Shown: positions 346 through 42,187 of the stretch, in pieces
Layout: the number at the start of each line of letters is the position of its first letter
Numbering within the stretch: the stretch's first letter is position 1
Assembly (NCBI GenBank): GCA_951406725.2
Contig: OX597826.1
Location: 6,696,001 to 6,760,000 of the forward strand
From: Octopus vulgaris
Taxonomy: Eukaryota
Length of the DNA: 64,000 nucleotides
Direction: 5' to 3'
Position numbers and translations under genes: made by a program
Notes under the pieces: generated by a model
Told to the model about the DNA's origin: nothing
Seen by the model: only the letters and a program-made list of their open reading frames with translations
Databases searched by the model: none

Positions 346-1422
346 TGGGGGAGGAGGAGATATGATCACGATATTAATAAGAGTTGTAGATGTAACGACA
401 ACAATCATAATAACAATAAAAACATCAACTACGACGATGATGTATATGCCGATGGAGGTGGTGGTGCGCATGATGTTGATGGTGATGATGATGATGACTA
501 CGACGACGAGGAGGATGATAGCAACAACAAGTTACCTTAATCGTAATAATAAGAATATGTAACCTAGGTGAACTTAATTGCATAAATATCATTGTACAAA
601 AGCTATATCATTATTGCAATTCTATTCCAGTATCCTTGCAATTAGATAATCGCAAGAACATTATATATCTGCATGTGAATGATTTTGTCAAATGAAGCGC
701 TTTATGTTCTAAGATTACGATTTTTTTTTTTTTTTTGGCATTTGTTTCATGGAGATACTTCGGGGAAATTTTATAATAACTGTGGCGTTTCTATTTGAAT
801 GGAACACAAGGGATACGCTGTTAGATTGATGTGAGAATTTTGTATGAGCATAGTTTTTTTTCTTCTTTTATTATTTTCCTACTGGAAAAGATTCGCTACT
901 CAGAACAAACGCCACTTTCAATTAAGAGAACATTTCGGCTGACAACTGTTTATCTGTTTTACACCGGCTTTCAAAAGTCCCTTAATTAGTTATAAGTCTT
1001 TCTTGTTTCGCAATTTTTTGAAGATGTACACGCTGATATGTTTTACAATGTAGTAACAAGGCTTTGATATATGATAAAAAAAAATAACAATACGCTTAGA
1101 ATGTGATATAAGCTTAAAGACATGTGTATACGTATTAATAAATACATATAGCACCCGTTTAACTTCTGCGCATGATTCATATTATCAGAACCACAGCTGG
1201 TGGAATCCATATTTTATCGTATTAACACAAATATGGTGACGGTTCGCATCCAAGCAGCTGCAATGCGTTGATTTAATTGACATAACTTTTAAATCACATA
1301 CGAATCTGTTTTGCTATCGAAAATGAAGAAGAGCGAAATGATCCGCATTATAAGTTCTGTATTCTTTGATTATACCTCTAGAGAATTCCTGGTGTGAAGT
1401 AATGAGTCCATATTTTAGCAGG

Positions 1423-1475
<53 letters not shown>

Positions 1476-1852
1476 CATAAAGTGAGGAAGAAACTCAGCA
1501 TTTTTAATAAAATACATTAATACCAAGAAGATTTTTTTTTTCGTTTTTTTTGGCGCAATTGCAATTGCGCCGCAGCTGTGCGAAAAGTGTTCCTCTGTAA
1601 TTTCTCTCTCTAAAATGTCGGAAGAAATATAATGGTTACCTAATGTTCCTTCTTTAAACGTTATGAGACGTGTGAGATGTGGGATCTATATTTATAACGG
1701 GTAGACGCCACCGTGTGTCTTTCCCACTGGCTCGAATTTAACGGTGTGAATATCTACCGGAGCCAAATGATTCAGAGATTCATAATTTTTTGTCAGAAAG
1801 TTTTCTCCTTTAACACTCATATACATAGATTCAAACATGATATATAGCGATA

Positions 1853-1905
<53 letters not shown>

Positions 1906-2082
1906 GTGCGTGTGTGTGTGTGTGTGTGTGTCTGTGTGTGTGTGTGTGAGTGAGTATGTGGATATTTAAGTATACATATATGATACATATACATAAACTT
2001 ATATATATATATGTCTGTGTGTGTGTGTGTCTATATGTATGAATGTATATATATCTGTATACAAACACACACACACACACAT

Positions 2083-2132
<50 letters not shown>

Positions 2133-2250
2133 TCATAAATAGAGTTCTCTCTTTTTCTCTTTCCGTACATCCATTCTATATTCACATATAAGCCAAATAT
2201 AATCTCTCTCATTTTATGTGTGTACGTGTGTTCCCGTATATATCTATAAA

Positions 2251-2281
<31 letters not shown>

Positions 2282-2384
2282 GGCTACAGCAGAAAACACT
2301 TGCCCAAGTTGCCACGCAGTGAGACTGAACTCGGAACCATGTGCTTGGTAAGCAAGCCACTCACTACACAGCCACTCCTGCGTC
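2282..2384 (-). mobile_element. SINE family A, 5' head fragment
   Basis: Reverse complement matches the head of the full copy at 2665 (ggcgcaggagtggctgtgtggtaag...cttgggcaagtgt). Confidence 0.85.
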
Positions 2385-2664
2385 TACATCCATTAAAAGA
2401 TACATACGTGGACACACATGCACACACATATATAATTCCAGAGATTATATTTTTACTATTTAACATGTATGTGAATATAGAATGGATATACGGGAAGAGA
2501 AAATGAGAGAACTATACAAATAGAAACATAGATGTCAAGATATGAAGGTAGAATAGCCAATACATAAAATTTTTACAATATATATATATATATGTAAATG
2601 GCGGTGCCCCAGCATGGCCACAGCTCATTAGCTGAAACTGGAAAAATCAAGATCAAAAATCATA

Positions 2665-3070
2665 GGCGCAGGAGTGGCTGTGTGGTAAGTAGCTTGCTAA
2701 CCAACCACATGATTCCGGGTTCAGTTCCACTGCGTGGCATCTTGGGCGAGTGTCTTGTGCTATAGCCTCGGGCCGACCAATGCCTTGTGAGTGGATTTGG
2801 TAGACGGAAACAGAAAGAAGCCTGTCGTATATATGTATATATATATATATGTATGTGTGTGTTTGTGTGTCTGTGTTTGTCCCCCTAACATTGCTTGGCA
2901 ACCGATGCTGGTGTGTTTACGTCCCCGTCACTTAGCGGTTCGGCAAAAGAGACCGATAAAATAAGTACTGGGCTTACAAAGAATAAGTCCCGGGGTCGAT
3001 TTGCTTGACTAAAGGCGGTGCTGCAGCATGGCCGCAGTAAAATGACTGAAACAAGTAAAAGAGTAAAAGA
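2665..3070 (+). mobile_element. SINE family A (tRNA head, CORE-like domain, internal TA/TG microsatellite), full length
   Basis: A-box-like TGGCTGTGTGG at 2675, B-box-like GGTTCAGTTCC at 2718, CORE-like tggcatcttgggcgagtgtctt, tail gaaacaagtaaaagagtaaaaga; at least 6 homologous copies elsewhere in the window. Resembles octopus OR-type CORE-SINEs (from memory). Confidence 0.9.
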
Positions 3071-3319
3071 TTATATCCATTTATACTAAGACAACGAGTC
3101 AGATAGAACATTTAATTTTTCACCGAGTTCAACTGAATATAATCTTCGTTAGTGTAGTATAGAATCTGTTAGATATTTTAGTCTGATTAATTTAGACACC
3201 ACATACTTAATATTGACGTTATTTTGTATAATCTGTAAGATATTATACATTCGTGTATAAAAGACAAAACATGTATTTTTCTGCAATGCTCAGTATTTTG
3301 AAACAATGCAAAATCATGA

Positions 3320-3421
3320 ATGTGGAATCACTTCCGCGTTTCAAGAAATTCTAAACTAAATTCCATCAAGATGTGGAATCACTTCCGCGTTTCAAGAAAT
3401 TCTAAACTAAATTCCATCAAG
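3320..3421. repeat. Perfect 51-bp tandem duplication
   Basis: atgtggaatcacttccgcgtttcaagaaattctaaactaaattccatcaag at 3320-3370 and 3371-3421. Confidence 0.95.
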
Positions 3422-3524
3422 ATAAGATATTGATTAAAAATTTCACGAGCTCGGGAATGAACGTTAGTCATTGCAGACGTGATTTTTTATTCCACAGTTT
3501 AGAGTAGAATGGTTTGTATATATA

Positions 3525-3588
<64 letters not shown>

Positions 3589-3591
3589 TAA

Positions 3592-3652
<61 letters not shown>

Positions 3653-3658
3653 TGTATG

Positions 3659-3714
<56 letters not shown>

Positions 3715-4127
3715 CAGTTAAGTAGATGAGCAATTATGTATCTAAAATAAGCCGTAACAAATTGTGCAACACTGGACAAAAAAAAAAGACAATTATTTGA
3801 ACTGATTATTAGAGTTTCTAATCATTCGAGTAGCCGAGCTTTCTTTACCTGGCATTCGACTAATTGTAATTTGCACACATGCGTTAAGGCACTATCATAC
3901 ACCTGATCATAAAAGCATTTCATATGCATATATATATATATGTGTGTGTGTGTTTGTGTATAAGCATATATGCATAAATATAGATATATACATACATATA
4001 CATATAAATATGTATAGATATACATATATATATATAGCCATATATGTGTGTATATATGTATGTATGCGTGTAAATATATATAGGTGCATATATATATACA
4101 TACATACATACACACATACACCCATCC

Positions 4128-4172
<45 letters not shown>

Positions 4173-4393
4173 GTGTGTGTATATAAGGACGCAAGGCAGA
4201 CAGACCGAGAGGGGGACTGATAGATGGATATCTAGATATGCATCTATACATGTGTGATATTTGTAAATCTTAACTTTTTGTGTTACAAAATACTCTGAGA
4301 TAATACCAATGTTTTCTTTAAATATTTTGGATGTGGGGGAGAATCTAGATTGTTTTATAAATTGCTTTATTTTTGCATTTTGTATTTTCTCAG

Positions 4394-4648
4394 GCATGTT
4401 CTGTTTGTATTCAAGGACATCATTCGTGCCTTTGGGTATAAGAGTCATCTCTCCCATCAGTTCCACTGTATTTAGCGAACAGCACCGAAGAACGATTTGT
4501 ATATTTTTCTTATACCGAAAACTGTCTATTGCAGCTGTTGTCATTGAAGATATGCCGCTACTCACTAAGTACAACATGTCATTGGATGCACACTGGATGT
4601 CGGTTTGCGTAGTTTCTGACAAGGTTTTCGAATACAAAAAGCAAACAG
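4394..4648 (+). CDS. Candidate internal exon (255 nt, phase 1-1), possibly a divergent fibronectin type III-like module
   Basis: Acceptor tgtattttctcag|G, donor CAG|gtaaaa, length a multiple of 3, only one + frame open (GMFCLYS...VVIEDMPLLTKYNMSLDAH...KKQT). Weak resemblance to the FN3 'I.dL.P.T.Y...V.A' motif. No partner exons identified. Confidence 0.35.
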
Positions 4649-5110
4649 GTAAAAAAAAAACTTACAAAAGTAAACCACATTCAAAGAAAAGAGAAAACAA
4701 AAAAACAAAAAAACAACACAGAACAGAATATGAAATATATAGGGAATTCACCGACTGAATGCAGATGCAAGCATGAATATAACTATAAGGTAAAGAAAAT
4801 AGCCAAATAATTACGATTAAATACACAAATACAAATACGCACAGGCTTATATTAGTAAAAGGAAAAAATGAACGTGTTTTCACACATTCACACAGGAAAC
4901 AAGACGTAACTAAACAGACAAAAAGCTGGCTGATTTAAAGATTGGCAAATTGATACACATGCGCAAAAACTATATATAGGTAGATATCTTTACATATGTA
5001 GGCATGCATGTATGCATGTACGGAACTATATTTATTTATTTGTATATATATGTACATCTATATCTATCTATCTATGTATCTATCTATCTATCTACACTTG
5101 TGTACATAAG

Positions 5111-5182
<72 letters not shown>

Positions 5183-5997
5183 TATCTATATATGAAAAGA
5201 GAGAGAAGAAACAGTGATAGATGGATGAATTGTGTAATTAGTTTAGCGTATAATTGTATATATTATTATACACGCAAATAGACACACATACGCACATAGG
5301 CACATGTATGTAAAACTTAGTGTATGCGGGAAATGCTGCAGTTTATGTCTTTTGAACGACACACATATATATATATATATATATATAATTAATACTTCAA
5401 TAATATTCTCTATATACATAAGGCGAAAACTTGATGTTGAGATCGTATTTGGTATAGCTAAATGTATGTGTACTATATTGTCGTACATATTTGTATATGT
5501 GCGTGTGTATATACACGCACATTTGCAATCCATATGAATTTTCATGCATATAAATACCCATGCTTACATAAAATCGTAATGACTGACATTTTTTTCGGTA
5601 TTAAAATATGTATACATGTATTTTCTTTACGTGGGACTACGTGGGAATATTCATTCACGATGCATTATATATAATTGCGAAAACGTGTAACTCTTAGATA
5701 TCAGAGGCATTGTACTTACATGGTACTTACATCTCATTCATATGCGTCTAAAATCTTGGGAAATACTTGACGAAGATTAATCGTTAATTCATGAAATTAC
5801 GAGTGTATATAAGAGGTTTTATATGTAATTATATATTAAATCTCAATAATACTTTCCTTCTTCTTCTTATGTAATTAATGCAATAATTATCTATCCAAAT
5901 CTATGTCTATATACATTCTGTATTCCTGTATGTGCATATATATAAATATATACATTCACACACACCCGCAAACACACACGCACACACACACACACAT

Positions 5998-6037
<40 letters not shown>

Positions 6038-6127
6038 TTCCACTTATAAGTATGCATCCTCGCATGTATGTTCAGAGTATTATTGAAGTAATTTATAGAC
6101 AAATATCTAATTTATACATACACACAC

Positions 6128-6179
<52 letters not shown>

Positions 6180-6184
6180 ATGTG

Positions 6185-6217
<33 letters not shown>

Positions 6218-6559
6218 GTAACAATGTGTGTATGTTTATCAGTATATGTTTACTTTATATTATATAATATTTTTATGAAAATAGGGTTATATGTACTTCC
6301 GTGGTGAGATATATATACACACATAAACACATATATACAAAATATATATGTATGTATATATGCATATATATATAATGTCTTTTTTACTACCATAAAATCT
6401 CAGTAGGTTGTGAGGCACATAGCTGACACCTTGTTACATTTATGTATAATATTATACGATAATTTGTAAGCTTTGCCTAATTTTTTAAATTTATTTACTT
6501 ACAGGCGACCTGGTACAATTATTACTGATTTTACCCTATAACATTAATATATATATATA

Positions 6560-6612
<53 letters not shown>

Positions 6613-6747
6613 TGCGTGAGTTTATTTGTAAAAAAAATGACAATAAATAAAATGACCATCCCGAAGTACAACAATATCTGTTTCAACAAACACAATTTCA
6701 CATCAGGAACATTGCAAAACTAATTGATAAACGTGTGTGTGTGTATG

Positions 6748-6819
<72 letters not shown>

Positions 6820-7288
6820 AGTGTGTGTGTGTGTGTGTGTCTGTATGTATGCATGTATGTATATGTGTTTGTGTATGTGTGTATGCGTGTGTGTACAGTA
6901 TCTCACCACGGAAGTACATACAACCCTAACATTTTCACTAAAAATGCCATTACGCTGATAATATCGTAAGAAGTAAACGAAATTTATACTGAATAAAATA
7001 TATCATACATGCAAACATTGTTACAAATTTAGAACACAAAACAATACACATTTTCAAAGATATGAACGAAATATTAATTTTTAAACATTACCGAAATATC
7101 CACACCCTAAAGGAAATTTGATATATTCATTATTTGATCCACTTTCTTAAAACTAAATTCAGATATTGCTGATAATTTCAATTCTAGTAAATTATTTCCC
7201 CTGTAATTTTTGCACCGGTCATTGTTATTGCATCTGCAGCAATTTTGATTTGTGTACCCTGGTGAAAATACCCTTCATTGTGATTAAA

Positions 7289-12166: not shown

Positions 12167-12274
12167 TGTAAGCCGACGCTCCAAACAAAAGGCATGCGTC
12201 CTCACTATTATATATAAATATATATACTGGTGTATGTGAATATACATACACACACACGCATACATATGTATATA

Positions 12275-12319
<45 letters not shown>

Positions 12320-12366
12320 GTGTGCGTGTGTGTATGTATATCACATACACACACACGCACACATAT

Positions 12367-12407
<41 letters not shown>

Positions 12408-12511
12408 TATATACATATGTGTGCGTGTGTGTGTATGTATATTCACATACACCAGTATTATATATAATAGTGAGGACGCATGCCTTTTTGATTGGAGAGT
12501 CGGCTTACAAT
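12165..12511. repeat. ~350-bp palindromic (inverted) duplication
   Basis: attgtaagccgacgctccaaacaaaaggcatgcgtcctcactattata... mirrors ...tataatagtgaggacgcatgcctttttgattggagagtcggcttacaat; inner arms include mirrored microsatellites. Confidence 0.9.
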
Positions 12512-13019
12512 CGGGGAGTTCCGAACTGGATTCTTGGACAGGGCTCTCTGTTTTGTTTTTGACACCTTATTTCACGCTCCTGAAGTTCACTTAATTGTGA
12601 AAATTAGTTGTCACTGGAGACACTTTGTATCTGTCTTTGACTTGGACAACGTCAATGGTTTGGAGAGGAGAAATTGGTATGCATGTGTGCCTGTTGGACT
12701 TCCACAAGCAACCTTGCCAGGAGGGGAAGATTCTGGACACGGTACAATGTTCACGAGTGTGTATTATGTGTGTATTTTGTGTTACAAATTGTTAGAATGA
12801 GTATGTGTATTTAGTATGAGACGACAGACAGACGGACGGACGAATGGATGGATGGATAAAAAATTCTATTCCATGAATCACTCTATTTTCGAACCCCTAT
12901 TATGATATCCACATTCCAATCTATATAATTCGAATTAAAAGACAGAAAATTATGGGTAGCCAAAAGGTTCCCGAGTTCCATATTATGGTCAGATCCTTGC
13001 TGAGTAGAATTTTTTATAA

Positions 13020-13670
13020 TACTGTTCTGTATTCTCGAGATGGGGTATTCTGTACACTATTTACAGTATTTACATTGGACAGATATGTGGCCTCATCTTG
13101 TCTGTTGTTACCACGTTTCGGCTGATTTACATCCTTCATCAGGTGTCCTGGTAGAATTTTGAATCCAGCCTTAGGTTCTTGTGCCTAAAGTATTATTTTT
13201 TTTTTTTGGTGATAATATTATTTTTTTTCTTCAAGGCACTGACTGGGAGTGAACTCGAAATTTTGGTGCCAGTAGCCCGCATTTTTAACCACTACGCTAT
13301 ATGCCTGTGGGCAAGTATACAATAAAATTTAGGGCTGATAGACCTAAAATTTTTGCATCCTTCTTTAATACAGGTTCCCATATTCTATTTATATCTGCAC
13401 TAAATCTGCTTGGGAGGTTATTGTGTCCTAGCATATGTGCTGCCTCTTTTCGTTTTCGTATTTGCCAGTGGTATTTTCTGTATATTATTTTAACTTCATC
13501 CCACAGAAGGTAGTCTCCGCTTTTCCATACATGATCAGCTATACCCGATTTTTCTAAATTCCACCAGGACACCTGATGAAGGCTGGAGAGTAAATCAGTT
13601 GAAACGTCGTGGTAGCAACAAACAAGATGAGGACACATAACCGTCCAATGTAAATAATGTAAATAATATT
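13020..13670 (-). mobile_element. 5'-truncated Penelope-like element: GIY-YIG C-terminus, 3' region and inverted terminal copy
   Basis: Minus frame EKSGIADHVWKSGDYLLWDEVKII...WQIRKRKEAAHM matches the PLE endonuclease C-terminus; about 13060-13160 is inverted-duplicated at about 13556-13668; both copies carry CTGATGA...GAAAC. Confidence 0.85.
13235..13306 (-). promoter_or_regulatory. tRNA-derived segment with Pol III A/B boxes (pseudo-tRNA) inside the PLE 3' region
   Basis: Reverse complement aggcataTAGCGTAGTGGttaaaaatgcgggctactggcaccaaaatttcGAGTTCACTCCcagtcagtgcc; box spacing is tRNA-like but stems are imperfect, so not a functional tRNA. Confidence 0.65.
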
Positions 13671-15044
13671 TTATAATGTAATAACTTGTTCATTAGTGAA
13701 AAGCACTTGATATTATATCAATATTTCAGTCATGTTTCAAAGACTGAAGGAAACGGACGTATTCTTCTAATTATTATTTATTCTATGCATACCCTTGTCG
13801 TTTTTTATTACGCTCTCTTCAAAACGACAAGATTTTTCTTTGAGCGTGCATGTGTAAATGAACGTATATATTAGAACATATATAGTTCTAATCTCTTATT
13901 TCCTCGCGACCATTTTCAGAGAAATATTTGTAGTGCATGCTGGAGAAATCCTGGGTTTCAATTGGTAATATCTGTTAATTGGGAAGTCATAAATTATACG
14001 ATCCTCAAATGTAATAGTCTCGCAATAATTAAGGAAGAATATTCCGTAGCTGGTCTATAGTAAACAGAGTCATTTGAACTCATTAGAAAATTTACAGAGA
14101 AGATTTTTCATATGGATTGTTATGGATACGAGTACAGAATTCTGTATAGTTACTTTCCTTTATTTTCCGGTAGTTTTAGAATATAGAATTATATTTTTTC
14201 CCTGAAGTTGTTCGTATTTAGAGGCAAAATAATAAATGTAGGGTTTCAATGTAGATCAGTAATCCAACCAATTATTTCTCATCTATAAATGACATGACAC
14301 AGAGTTCATCCAATGGGAATTTCATGTCTTTAAACAGCAGGATGTCACTTCATTTCACGAATATAAGAGTGGACAATCCTGCCTAATACCCATAATTGGA
14401 TCTAGTCAATTACGATAGATACTACCGATAAAACATTTTATTCAAGTTATTTCACAAACAAAAAAAAAAACATACGAGAATGAAATAAAATCAAAGGTAC
14501 GCTAAAAACAAGAATTAGTCAAATTTAAACACAAACTTTAATAGAAATATTAAAGTAATATTCCTATGAAATATATTTTGCATGAACCAAAATGAAAGGG
14601 CAACTGAACTGTACTGCTTTAAAATCTAAAAATCTAAGTTAAATTTGTGGTGTATTCTGTTCTCCGAATACTATGGCATTCGTAGTTCCAGTATCGTTTG
14701 TTATTTTTTTCATATATTTATTGTATACGCATAATTGAAGTAATTTGGACAAAGCTAAGGAACTGGTTCTGCAGCTGAGATTGATAATGGCTGGAAAAGG
14801 TTAGACCCATTACGATCCTTTCTGATTCGATTCCCAAGAAAATACCCACGCATTCACACCCACGCAAACACACAAACACGCACATACACACACAAACACA
14901 CACATACAAACACACACAAATACATACATACAAACACACACATAGACACACACATATGCGAGTAATGATATGTAGTAAGATAGACAGACATACAGACAGA
15001 CAGACAGACAGATAGATAGATAGATAGTTAGTTAGATAGGTAGA

Positions 15045-40546: not shown

Positions 40547-42187
40547 TGGCGTCAAGGGACTTCGGTGAGAAGACTAACTACTGGTGGTAAAATATGATTG
40601 TATGGCAAAATATGTTTATTTTCAAATCGGTACGTACCTCGCCCTTGTGGATCGTGTGAATGTTCTCATAGAGGAAGAGCGTTCATTGAAGATAAAATAG
40701 TGATGTTAAGGATTATCCATATGATGCTGAAAAACCATCTCCATGCTCGCGGTGTCTCTAGATGAATTGAGACGGAAAATTTAAATAAACCCTCAGTAAT
40801 TTAATGCAGCTTGTATTATCGCATATTATCTTGTATTATCAGCGAAGACGTTGAGTGTATTTCTTTCCCGTTGGAAAGTGAGTGACCATGCGAATAGAAG
40901 CTTTCCTTTCAAAATATATCTCTTGGCGACCAACATTAAAACTTAGACGTAATGTAAGTTCTAACTATACATTTGTACAGTATGATTTTTACACCGAGTG
41001 TATCCCTTTAATATGCAATTATCAGTTACTTTACGATTATATTATAACTTATTGTTTACAATATTTGTTATATGTTAACAATATTCAGTTGATTAAACAG
41101 CCTAAATAAAGTCTTCTAAATGACTAAACGGCTTCGATCGCCTAAAAGCGTTTAAAATAATTACTACCGTTTTCATAAGTCGTTACTGCAATTGTTAGTA
41201 AGTTAATTAACTAAACCTTATTTTAAATTCGACACTGCAACAGATGTAAGCAACTATTTATTTCACAGCGCTCAATATTCGTATTTGATAAATTGCTCCT
41301 TACATTTACCTTATTACAAAAGTACCAGCCATCGTATAGTTTTGTTTTGCTTTTTTGTGCCTTTTTTTCTCTTTCACATTTTATGGACGCTATAACTTTA
41401 CCAACTATTGCTAAATCTCATCGAATACTTGTAGACACATCTATCAATACTGCTGTATTTCAGTTTCCATTATATATCTTTATACATCATTTCGTGAATC
41501 TGAAATATTCGCATTGTGCAACGTCGATGAATGATATTTTCTGATAGCAAACATGGCATCGAGACGTGCAATTACTTACATTGACCAATATATATTCAAC
41601 CTACAACTATTATCGCTAATGGCTGCTTGCATATTGAACCGCATGCTTCCTACATATAAAATAAAACTCCTTTGCCTTTCATCGGCGTTCGATTATATAT
41701 AAAAAAAAAACGCAATCCCAATTTCAAGGTATGTATATATCTCTGCATTACTATTTGATACACTGTGCCTATGAATATGTCAATGAGTGAATGCTTTTGC
41801 GATGTAGACTAGCTGCGTGAGGTCACGTTATATATAGAGAGAATTATTTTCTGACTGTTCGTTGTTCTTTTGTTGTGTACATCAGCGTGTTGGTCAGCTT
41901 TTCCATTTGCTCAAACGTAAATGAGAAATGTGCCATTTGTAGAGAGCTCATATATTATGTGTGTGGGGGAATAAATGAGCTAAATTGAGCAGCTATTTGA
42001 GATAAGGAGTATATATATATAATAACACTGCCTGCTTTTTTCAAATCATAATAATGTTCACATATCACTAGCGACACATATTAAGAGTAGTAGTATTTTA
42101 GTACGATACTCACTCAAACATTTGTAACTTCTCATGAAAGGGGAATACATGCATGCGTACATACATACATACATGCATACATTCATT

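Follow-up and report, generated by a model that had tools for sequence, protein, structure and literature searches.

The window, 64,000 nucleotides of Octopus vulgaris contig OX597826.1, contains at 13021-13668 a single insertion of a Penelope-like element (PLE), flanked by a 9-nt AT-rich target-site duplication which is short but flush with the insertion at both ends (left copy 13012-13020, right copy 13669-13677, plus strand). The minus strand of the insertion carries the end of an endonuclease gene, a tRNA-like head, a decayed hammerhead and a tail, and the plus strand carries an inverted second hammerhead. The coding remnant (13339-13554, minus strand) comprises about 70 codons of the GIY-YIG-type endonuclease C-terminus of a PLE open reading frame (ORF) that is truncated at its 5' end. 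Its translation has no Pfam match by itself, and is 73% identical (53 of 73 amino acids, E 6e-31) to the C-terminus of a 569-aa frame for reverse transcriptase (RT) and endonuclease at locus L037. A short 3' UTR (13308-13338, minus strand), which in alignment A1 runs from the stop codon position of the family to the head, separates the coding remnant from the tRNA-derived head at 13229-13307, a likely Pol III promoter. The tRNA-like block begins at 13306 and contains an A box at 13299-13289 and a B box at 13256-13246.

Following the head on the same strand, alignment A1 delimits an A-rich/(AAT)n tract with a spacer (13148-13228), a minimal type I hammerhead motif (13111-13147) and the 3' part of the pseudo-LTR, from the hammerhead up to the common 3' end (13054-13110). 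The tract and spacer hold a 6-nt insertion of a minority subfamily, common to L002-L005, L016 and L025. A 33-nt optional extension, the PLE 'tail' (13021-13053), is present on the minus-strand arm only, and continues into the 5' UTR and the ORF in full-length copies. The hammerhead core is recognised by CTGATGA at 13142-13136 and by GAAAC ending at 13115; however, relative to A1 stem II is shorter by 5 nt and the cleavage triplet is lost in a 3-nt deletion, and because of these deletions stem I cannot be paired. Given both losses, this copy of the ribozyme is predicted to be dead.

The inverted 5' arm lies at 13552-13667 of the plus strand and represents a second pseudo-LTR 3' end, placed head to head with the first and without the extension. 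Its hammerhead motif (13568-13612) has a complete core, with CTGATGA at 13573-13579 and GAAAC followed by GTC at 13601-13608, a 3-bp stem I and two G-U pairs at the base of stem II. The initial annotation of this stretch, which had reported a GIY-YIG C-terminal coding sequence, a tRNA-like block with both boxes and a hammerhead-like core with unpairable stem I on the minus strand, is confirmed in each of these points by the features described above; it had missed the inverted arm, the second core at 13573 and the duplication.

Elsewhere in the window, a 31-nt match to the tail end of the PLE family (41036-41066; 84%, E 0.003) is probably a further, very short copy. A different repeat is seen by eye as an inverted pair (12172-12240 and 12440-12600) around a long (TA)/(CA) palindrome at 12250-12440, and the Rfam miRNA matches around this palindrome were rejected as low-complexity artefacts.

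The PLE family and its terminal repeat

A genome search with the 531-nt stretch returned 5677 first-look candidates, and the 40 top matches that were scored all span the endonuclease, the head and the hammerhead, an order that the initial annotation had read from one copy and which is, at 40 of 40, beyond chance. The stretch was also found in sequencing runs filed under five organism labels. In a head-blind search, where the query was the coding sequence ending just before the head, 20 loci were selected; the head lies next to the coding end in 19 of them, one of which keeps only its first 24 nt, and L046 is the single locus without it. These results support the tRNA head as a fixed part of the terminal repeat of the family, as the initial annotation had required of most PLE copies, and a one-off SINE insertion as the origin of the head at the window is rejected with 19 of 20 coding-selected copies bearing it.

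The frame at L037 is free of stop codons, gives an RVT_1 match of E 2.7e-6 at 27.7 bits (below the cut-off of 29.6) and has no Pfam GIY-YIG match of its own; it aligns end to end with homologues that are 38-68% identical, three of which carry GIY-YIG (PF01541). A single ORF with RT followed by a C-terminal GIY-YIG-type endonuclease is the organisation of EN+ PLEs. Their partial-tandem pseudo-LTR is also found, as 13 of 30 loci picked on the ORF 5' end have the 3' part of the repeat, with a 32-nt extension, immediately before the ORF, and the same 3' part lies downstream of the ORF. PLEs are described as having inverted 5' copies and a tail at one side (PMC8557442). An inverted, 5'-truncated copy adjoins the 5' end at the window, 43 head-to-head pairs with a long arm were collected, and the one-ended tail, of 30-40 nt in such elements, measures 32-33 nt here. 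By every feature tested the family is a PLE, and its domain order would place it in the Penelope/Poseidon type. The complete unit, of about 2.8 kb, reads head, (AAT)n, hammerhead, tail, extension, 5' UTR, ORF (RT, endonuclease), 55-nt UTR and head again. This arrangement is real across the family, and unusual.

Several details of the unit were noted in passing. In L054, L055, L061, L065 and L195 the (AAT)n tract is expanded to hundreds of bases and hosts further insertions, and the element seeds microsatellites through it. Between this tract and the hammerhead there is a second B-box-like word (A1 columns 228-250; window 13148-13175), which may be a promoter strengthener or a remnant of a second tRNA. 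The five bases upstream of the head (window 13307-13314, minus strand; also L052, L059, L060 and L068) mirror the first five of the head and resemble the fold-back junctions of the short copies described below; they are possibly the scar of the capture of the head. The homologue P0005 (55% identical) starts with a peptide like the predicted product of the hammerhead-tail region, which suggests that the ORF of relatives starts inside the repeat, as reported for the anole element PAc.

Short copies, their insertion and the hammerhead

Exact matches to 23-nt motifs number 811 in the genome for a motif just upstream of the head, 3743 for one in the head and 7260 for one in the hammerhead, and reversed control motifs gave 0 genome matches. 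The step from 811 to 3743 takes place over about 35 nt, compared with about 165 nt for the step from 3743 to 7260, all of these being raw counts uncorrected for decay that differs between motifs. The 5' ends were located in the first 70 position-ordered head matches, within the first 58 Mb of one contig, with an intact A-box motif required, and copies cut inside the head fall outside this set by design. In 51 of the 70 the end lies within -15 to +1 of the head, in 54 within -23 and in one at -27, and 15 copies extend beyond -60, nine of these reaching the 400-nt limit. The ends per nucleotide at risk amount to 0.077 at the head, versus 0.0057 and 0.0018 in two zones further upstream. Thus counted, 54 of the 70 head-bearing copies start at the head and hold no ORF, with a ratio of short to long copies of about 3:1, in which L205/L207 are one duplicated event and L129-L131 apparently another, inflating the long class. 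With a head-only similarity query 28 of 29 non-self best matches also begin at the head; for the window-like variant of the head (75 matches) it is about 18 of 30 by eye, four of them probably being one duplicated event. The ends spread over about 15 nt and are blurred by a 5-bp palindrome at -8 to +4. Among near-full-length copies L291 and L299 start at the head, and L302 extends past it.

The junctions of the 54 short copies carry the marks of PLE integration. An inverted arm is present at the 5' junction in 34; the extension belongs to the main arm in 14 and to the inverted arm in 16, with no copy having it on both; and flanking duplications of at least 8 nt, mostly 10-13 nt, are present in 25, against 2% of mismatched flank pairs. 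These data show that the short copies arose by insertions of their own, with the inverted arms typical of PLEs, a tail at one side and duplicated target sites. They have the build of tRNA-derived SINEs, namely a head with boxes at the 5' end, a 3' end shared with a partner and dispersed duplications, and the autonomous partner that shares this 3' end is a PLE and not a LINE. The comparison of 54 short with 40 long copies gave no diagnostic column and one frequency skew, and both subfamily variants are present in the two classes. The best explanation of the short copies is that they are SINE-like by-products of the autonomous element.

The initial annotation had proposed the element as a possible parent of a PLE-mobilised SINE or of a retrozyme, and had looked to ORF-less short copies with the tRNA block, which prove to be the majority class. 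The parentage of a SINE stands as far as short copies derived from the PLE repeat and bearing PLE marks are concerned; for a SINE that propagates itself there is no diagnostic column. The parentage of a retrozyme did not hold: in the 80 nt upstream of the 54 short copies a single sense piece, a 22-nt fragment, was found, and the tandem retrozyme reading of the short copies is therefore rejected.

The hammerhead of the family shows the features listed for minimal PLE hammerheads (PMC4209133), that is the core, an extra base before G10.1-C11.1 and the palindromic 15.2-16.2, and has T or A at the free position 7. Its 5-bp stems I and II are paired in 88% and 92% of cells, respectively, versus 17-55% for slid partners, and the family alignment shows no covariation in these stems. 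Of the 42 short copies 13 keep the full core, as do 7 of the 35 long ones, and on folding the hammerhead is not the lowest-energy structure of the monomer. Since sequence beyond the cut site, on its 3' side, is retained in the short copies, cleavage appears to be unneeded for their formation; catalysis would not be required by the model given below, and the hammerhead is treated as a predicted motif. Seven copies in each class (42 short, 35 long), the window copy included, lack the cleavage triplet through a 3-nt deletion (A1 columns 300-303), which represents either slippage or a cleavage-dead sublineage that still spread.

Probable transcription from the head and a proposed model of copying

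Neither ARAGORN nor Rfam gave a tRNA call on the head in the window stretch; for this stretch and for the short copy L058, whose core is damaged, Rfam gave no tRNA or hammerhead match even at E values as high as 10. Compared with genomic tRNAs, better-preserved heads reach z of about 7-9 against shuffles and the window copy 5.6 at best, and the best parent among the 30 tRNA loci sampled is Arg, with Thr, Ala and Cys close. Both boxes are preserved in a cloverleaf that is only 59% paired (acceptor stem 67%, T stem 49%), and a functional tRNA is rejected on the missing calls and on this pairing. The 5' ends are concentrated on tRNA position 1 and the few bases before it.

Terminators of Pol III were looked for in the complete unit. 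No T4 run common to at least 40% of copies is found on the sense strand of the 2.8 kb, and more than 30 A4 runs reach this share; the majority call over 2773 nt contains 14 T3 and 0 T4 runs, and Phe is encoded by TTC 11 times versus TTT 3 times. The absence of T4 has P 0.045 versus dinucleotide shuffles and 0.12 versus synonymous-codon permutation of the longest frame, statistics which are weak with TT scarcity or the protein sequence held fixed. Decayed copies have a T4 density of 0.39-0.58 per kb versus 1.7-5.3 in the longest frames of four other RT families, all of them non-PLE and with the microsatellite of L043 left out. A head-less PLE control family was not found in the same genome, where 29 of 30 loci obtained with a distant PLE query belong to the head-bearing family. 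Because no T4 terminator is common to the copies, Pol III could possibly read the whole element; that it does transcribe the entire 2.8-kb protein-coding PLE from the tRNA-derived head is a tentative idea, which we hold to be rather doubtful. Three RNA-seq runs of one study, under a species label that is possibly not that of the window, show no piled-up starts or ends and cover both strands equally. Between 65 and 92% of the matched reads run on into unlike sequence, and the 5' part of the ORF has about a hundredfold fewer reads than the repeat, a pattern that is expected from old copies inside host transcripts.

Copies that begin at the head may reflect either a start of transcription or a stop of the RT, and the partner arms of long copies allow a distinction between the two. 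Stalling or fold-back of the RT at the palindrome or at a structure at the 5' edge of the head, while copying a long RNA, would dispense with a short RNA, and is suggested by the 5-bp palindrome itself and by several short copies with a fold-back at this edge. However, in the 43 head-to-head pairs with one arm beyond -60, counted by hand from the table, 26 partner arms start downstream of the A box and 17 reach it, and of the latter 13 pass the head and 4 stop there (2 with limit +1). This proportion of passage, 13 of 17, compares with 16 of 70 overall (binomial p about 4e-6, Fisher 6e-5), under the presumption that both arms are RNA-templated, which is supported by the one-sided extension. 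Since the partner arms of long copies mostly pass through it, the head is not an RT stop, and many short copies with a 5' end at -1 or -3 abut sequence that is unrelated or distant; we regard stalling as highly improbable. The pairing of long arms with long arms fits a separate short RNA beginning at the head, and the existence of such an RNA is very likely. That Pol III makes it is probable in view of the conserved boxes. The short RNA might otherwise be cut from a long Pol II transcript in an RNase P-like manner or be started by Pol II at the head, and many 5' ends do lie at or beside tRNA position 1, the Penelope of D. virilis has an internal TATA-less promoter (PMC2377424), and the protein needs a translatable RNA from some source. 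The poorly paired acceptor and T stems, in contrast, would make a poor processing substrate, ends are also found 3-8 nt upstream of the head, the boxes are kept and no T4 is common to the copies, so that we consider this origin unlikely.

Thus, we propose that Pol III may start at the head of the upstream repeat in tandem masters and read past the tail, and that the PLE protein would then prime reverse transcription at two internal sites of this RNA on both nicked target strands. The outcome would be ORF-less copies of 270-300 nt, single or head to head, made by the protein of the family from uncleaved RNA running past the tail. The hammerhead cut would be unneeded, and would act at most in a dimer or with the help of a protein. 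This model draws on the anole PLE PAc, for which nicking and extension of both target strands, RT starts at two internal sites spaced by the length of the tail, a template requirement for sequence downstream of the internal priming sites, and insertion that persists with hammerhead mutants have been described in vitro (PMC11167929). The initial annotation had placed the start in the 3' region of the element; a start borne by the head remains likely, but the 5' repeat of tandem masters is the likelier promoter copy, because the PAc template needs sequence downstream of the tail. On the whole, it seems reasonably likely that the window locus is a 5'-truncated, 5'-inverted PLE copy whose head worked as a Pol III promoter, with short transcripts recopied by the RT-endonuclease of the family. 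Alternatively, the short element could be an independent, self-propagating tRNA SINE with a PLE 3' end, mobilised in trans, from which the PLE later took its head. The excess of short copies, their own target duplications, an A at hammerhead position 7 in 15 of 44 short versus 3 of 35 long copies, and the mirrored bases upstream of the PLE head speak in favour of such a SINE; nevertheless no column cleanly divides the two classes, the subfamily variants are shared between them, and the short copies end at the tail, without the sequence required downstream of it in the PAc template (PMC11167929). The Pol III step is moreover common to this alternative and to the by-product explanation, and an independent SINE appears distinctly improbable.

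Comparison with known elements

Like the EN+ PLEs PAc of anole (PMC11167929) and Penelope of D. virilis (PMC2377424), the octopus family has a single RT-endonuclease ORF, a partial-tandem pseudo-LTR, an inverted 5' copy, a one-ended tail of 30-40 nt and a minimal hammerhead in the repeat. Unlike them, it has a tRNA-derived head with A and B boxes in the pseudo-LTR, and most copies start there; the promoter described for Penelope is TATA-less and LINE-like (PMC2377424). The Sm-alpha and Sj-alpha repeats of Schistosoma resemble the short copies in that a hammerhead follows a Pol III-type promoter within a short unit free of coding sequence, but they are often tandem and self-cleaving, and their partner is unnamed in the available text of the review (PMC6765202), whereas the octopus unit forms the terminal repeat of a protein-coding PLE and its copies are single or head to head. 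The TRIMp3 elements Cassandra, Helenus and Ajax also carry a Pol III promoter derived from a small RNA in their terminal repeat, with the boxes kept and not the fold; these are non-autonomous LTR elements with PBS and PPT, and the octopus head sits on an autonomous element (PMC10886601). Two direct LTRs on a non-autonomous element, by which TRIMp3 are defined, are not what is found here, where a coding PLE organisation, inverted arms and a tail are present. Non-LTR retrozymes (bioRxiv 10.64898/2026.07.22.740005) are likewise non-coding, contain a type I hammerhead and derive from PLE pseudo-LTRs, but they form tandem arrays of at least two units with no tRNA head mentioned in the accessible text, and the octopus short copies are not tandem. 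A tRNA head in a PLE repeat was not found described in the literature searched. The available portions of two octopus repeat papers (PMC13282606, PMC8967140) make no mention of it, and their supplementary libraries may contain the sequence with a different name.

SINEs have been described as LINE parasites. The present family shows, in one genome, a route from the terminal repeat of a PLE to SINE-like elements, and offers a testable model for repeats that combine a tRNA promoter with a hammerhead, such as Sm-alpha. Furthermore, with thousands of copies, PLE integration through two internal priming sites and inverted arms becomes readable statistically. If the whole element were run by Pol III, an autonomous retrotransposon would be using a captured promoter of SINE type and shedding SINE-like copies that bear a ribozyme. 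Transcription of the ORF by Pol III would, if true, challenge the view that Pol II is obligate in autonomous retroelements, and would call for an explanation of the translation of an uncapped RNA; the autonomous partners of TRIMp3 have been argued to need Pol II (PMC10886601).

In annotation, the octopus PLE repeats will be mistaken for ordinary SINEs or for pseudogenes of tRNAs. Ohshima and Okada reportedly described in 1994 the octopus tRNA SINEs OK, OR1 and OR2, which, like the short copies, are short and derived from tRNA, in hosts of a similar group; OR1 and OR2 appear in the literature as CORE-SINEs. Another RT family of the genome (L312-L340) has many long open frames, of up to about 950 aa, with identical scores across chromosomes, and looks recently active.
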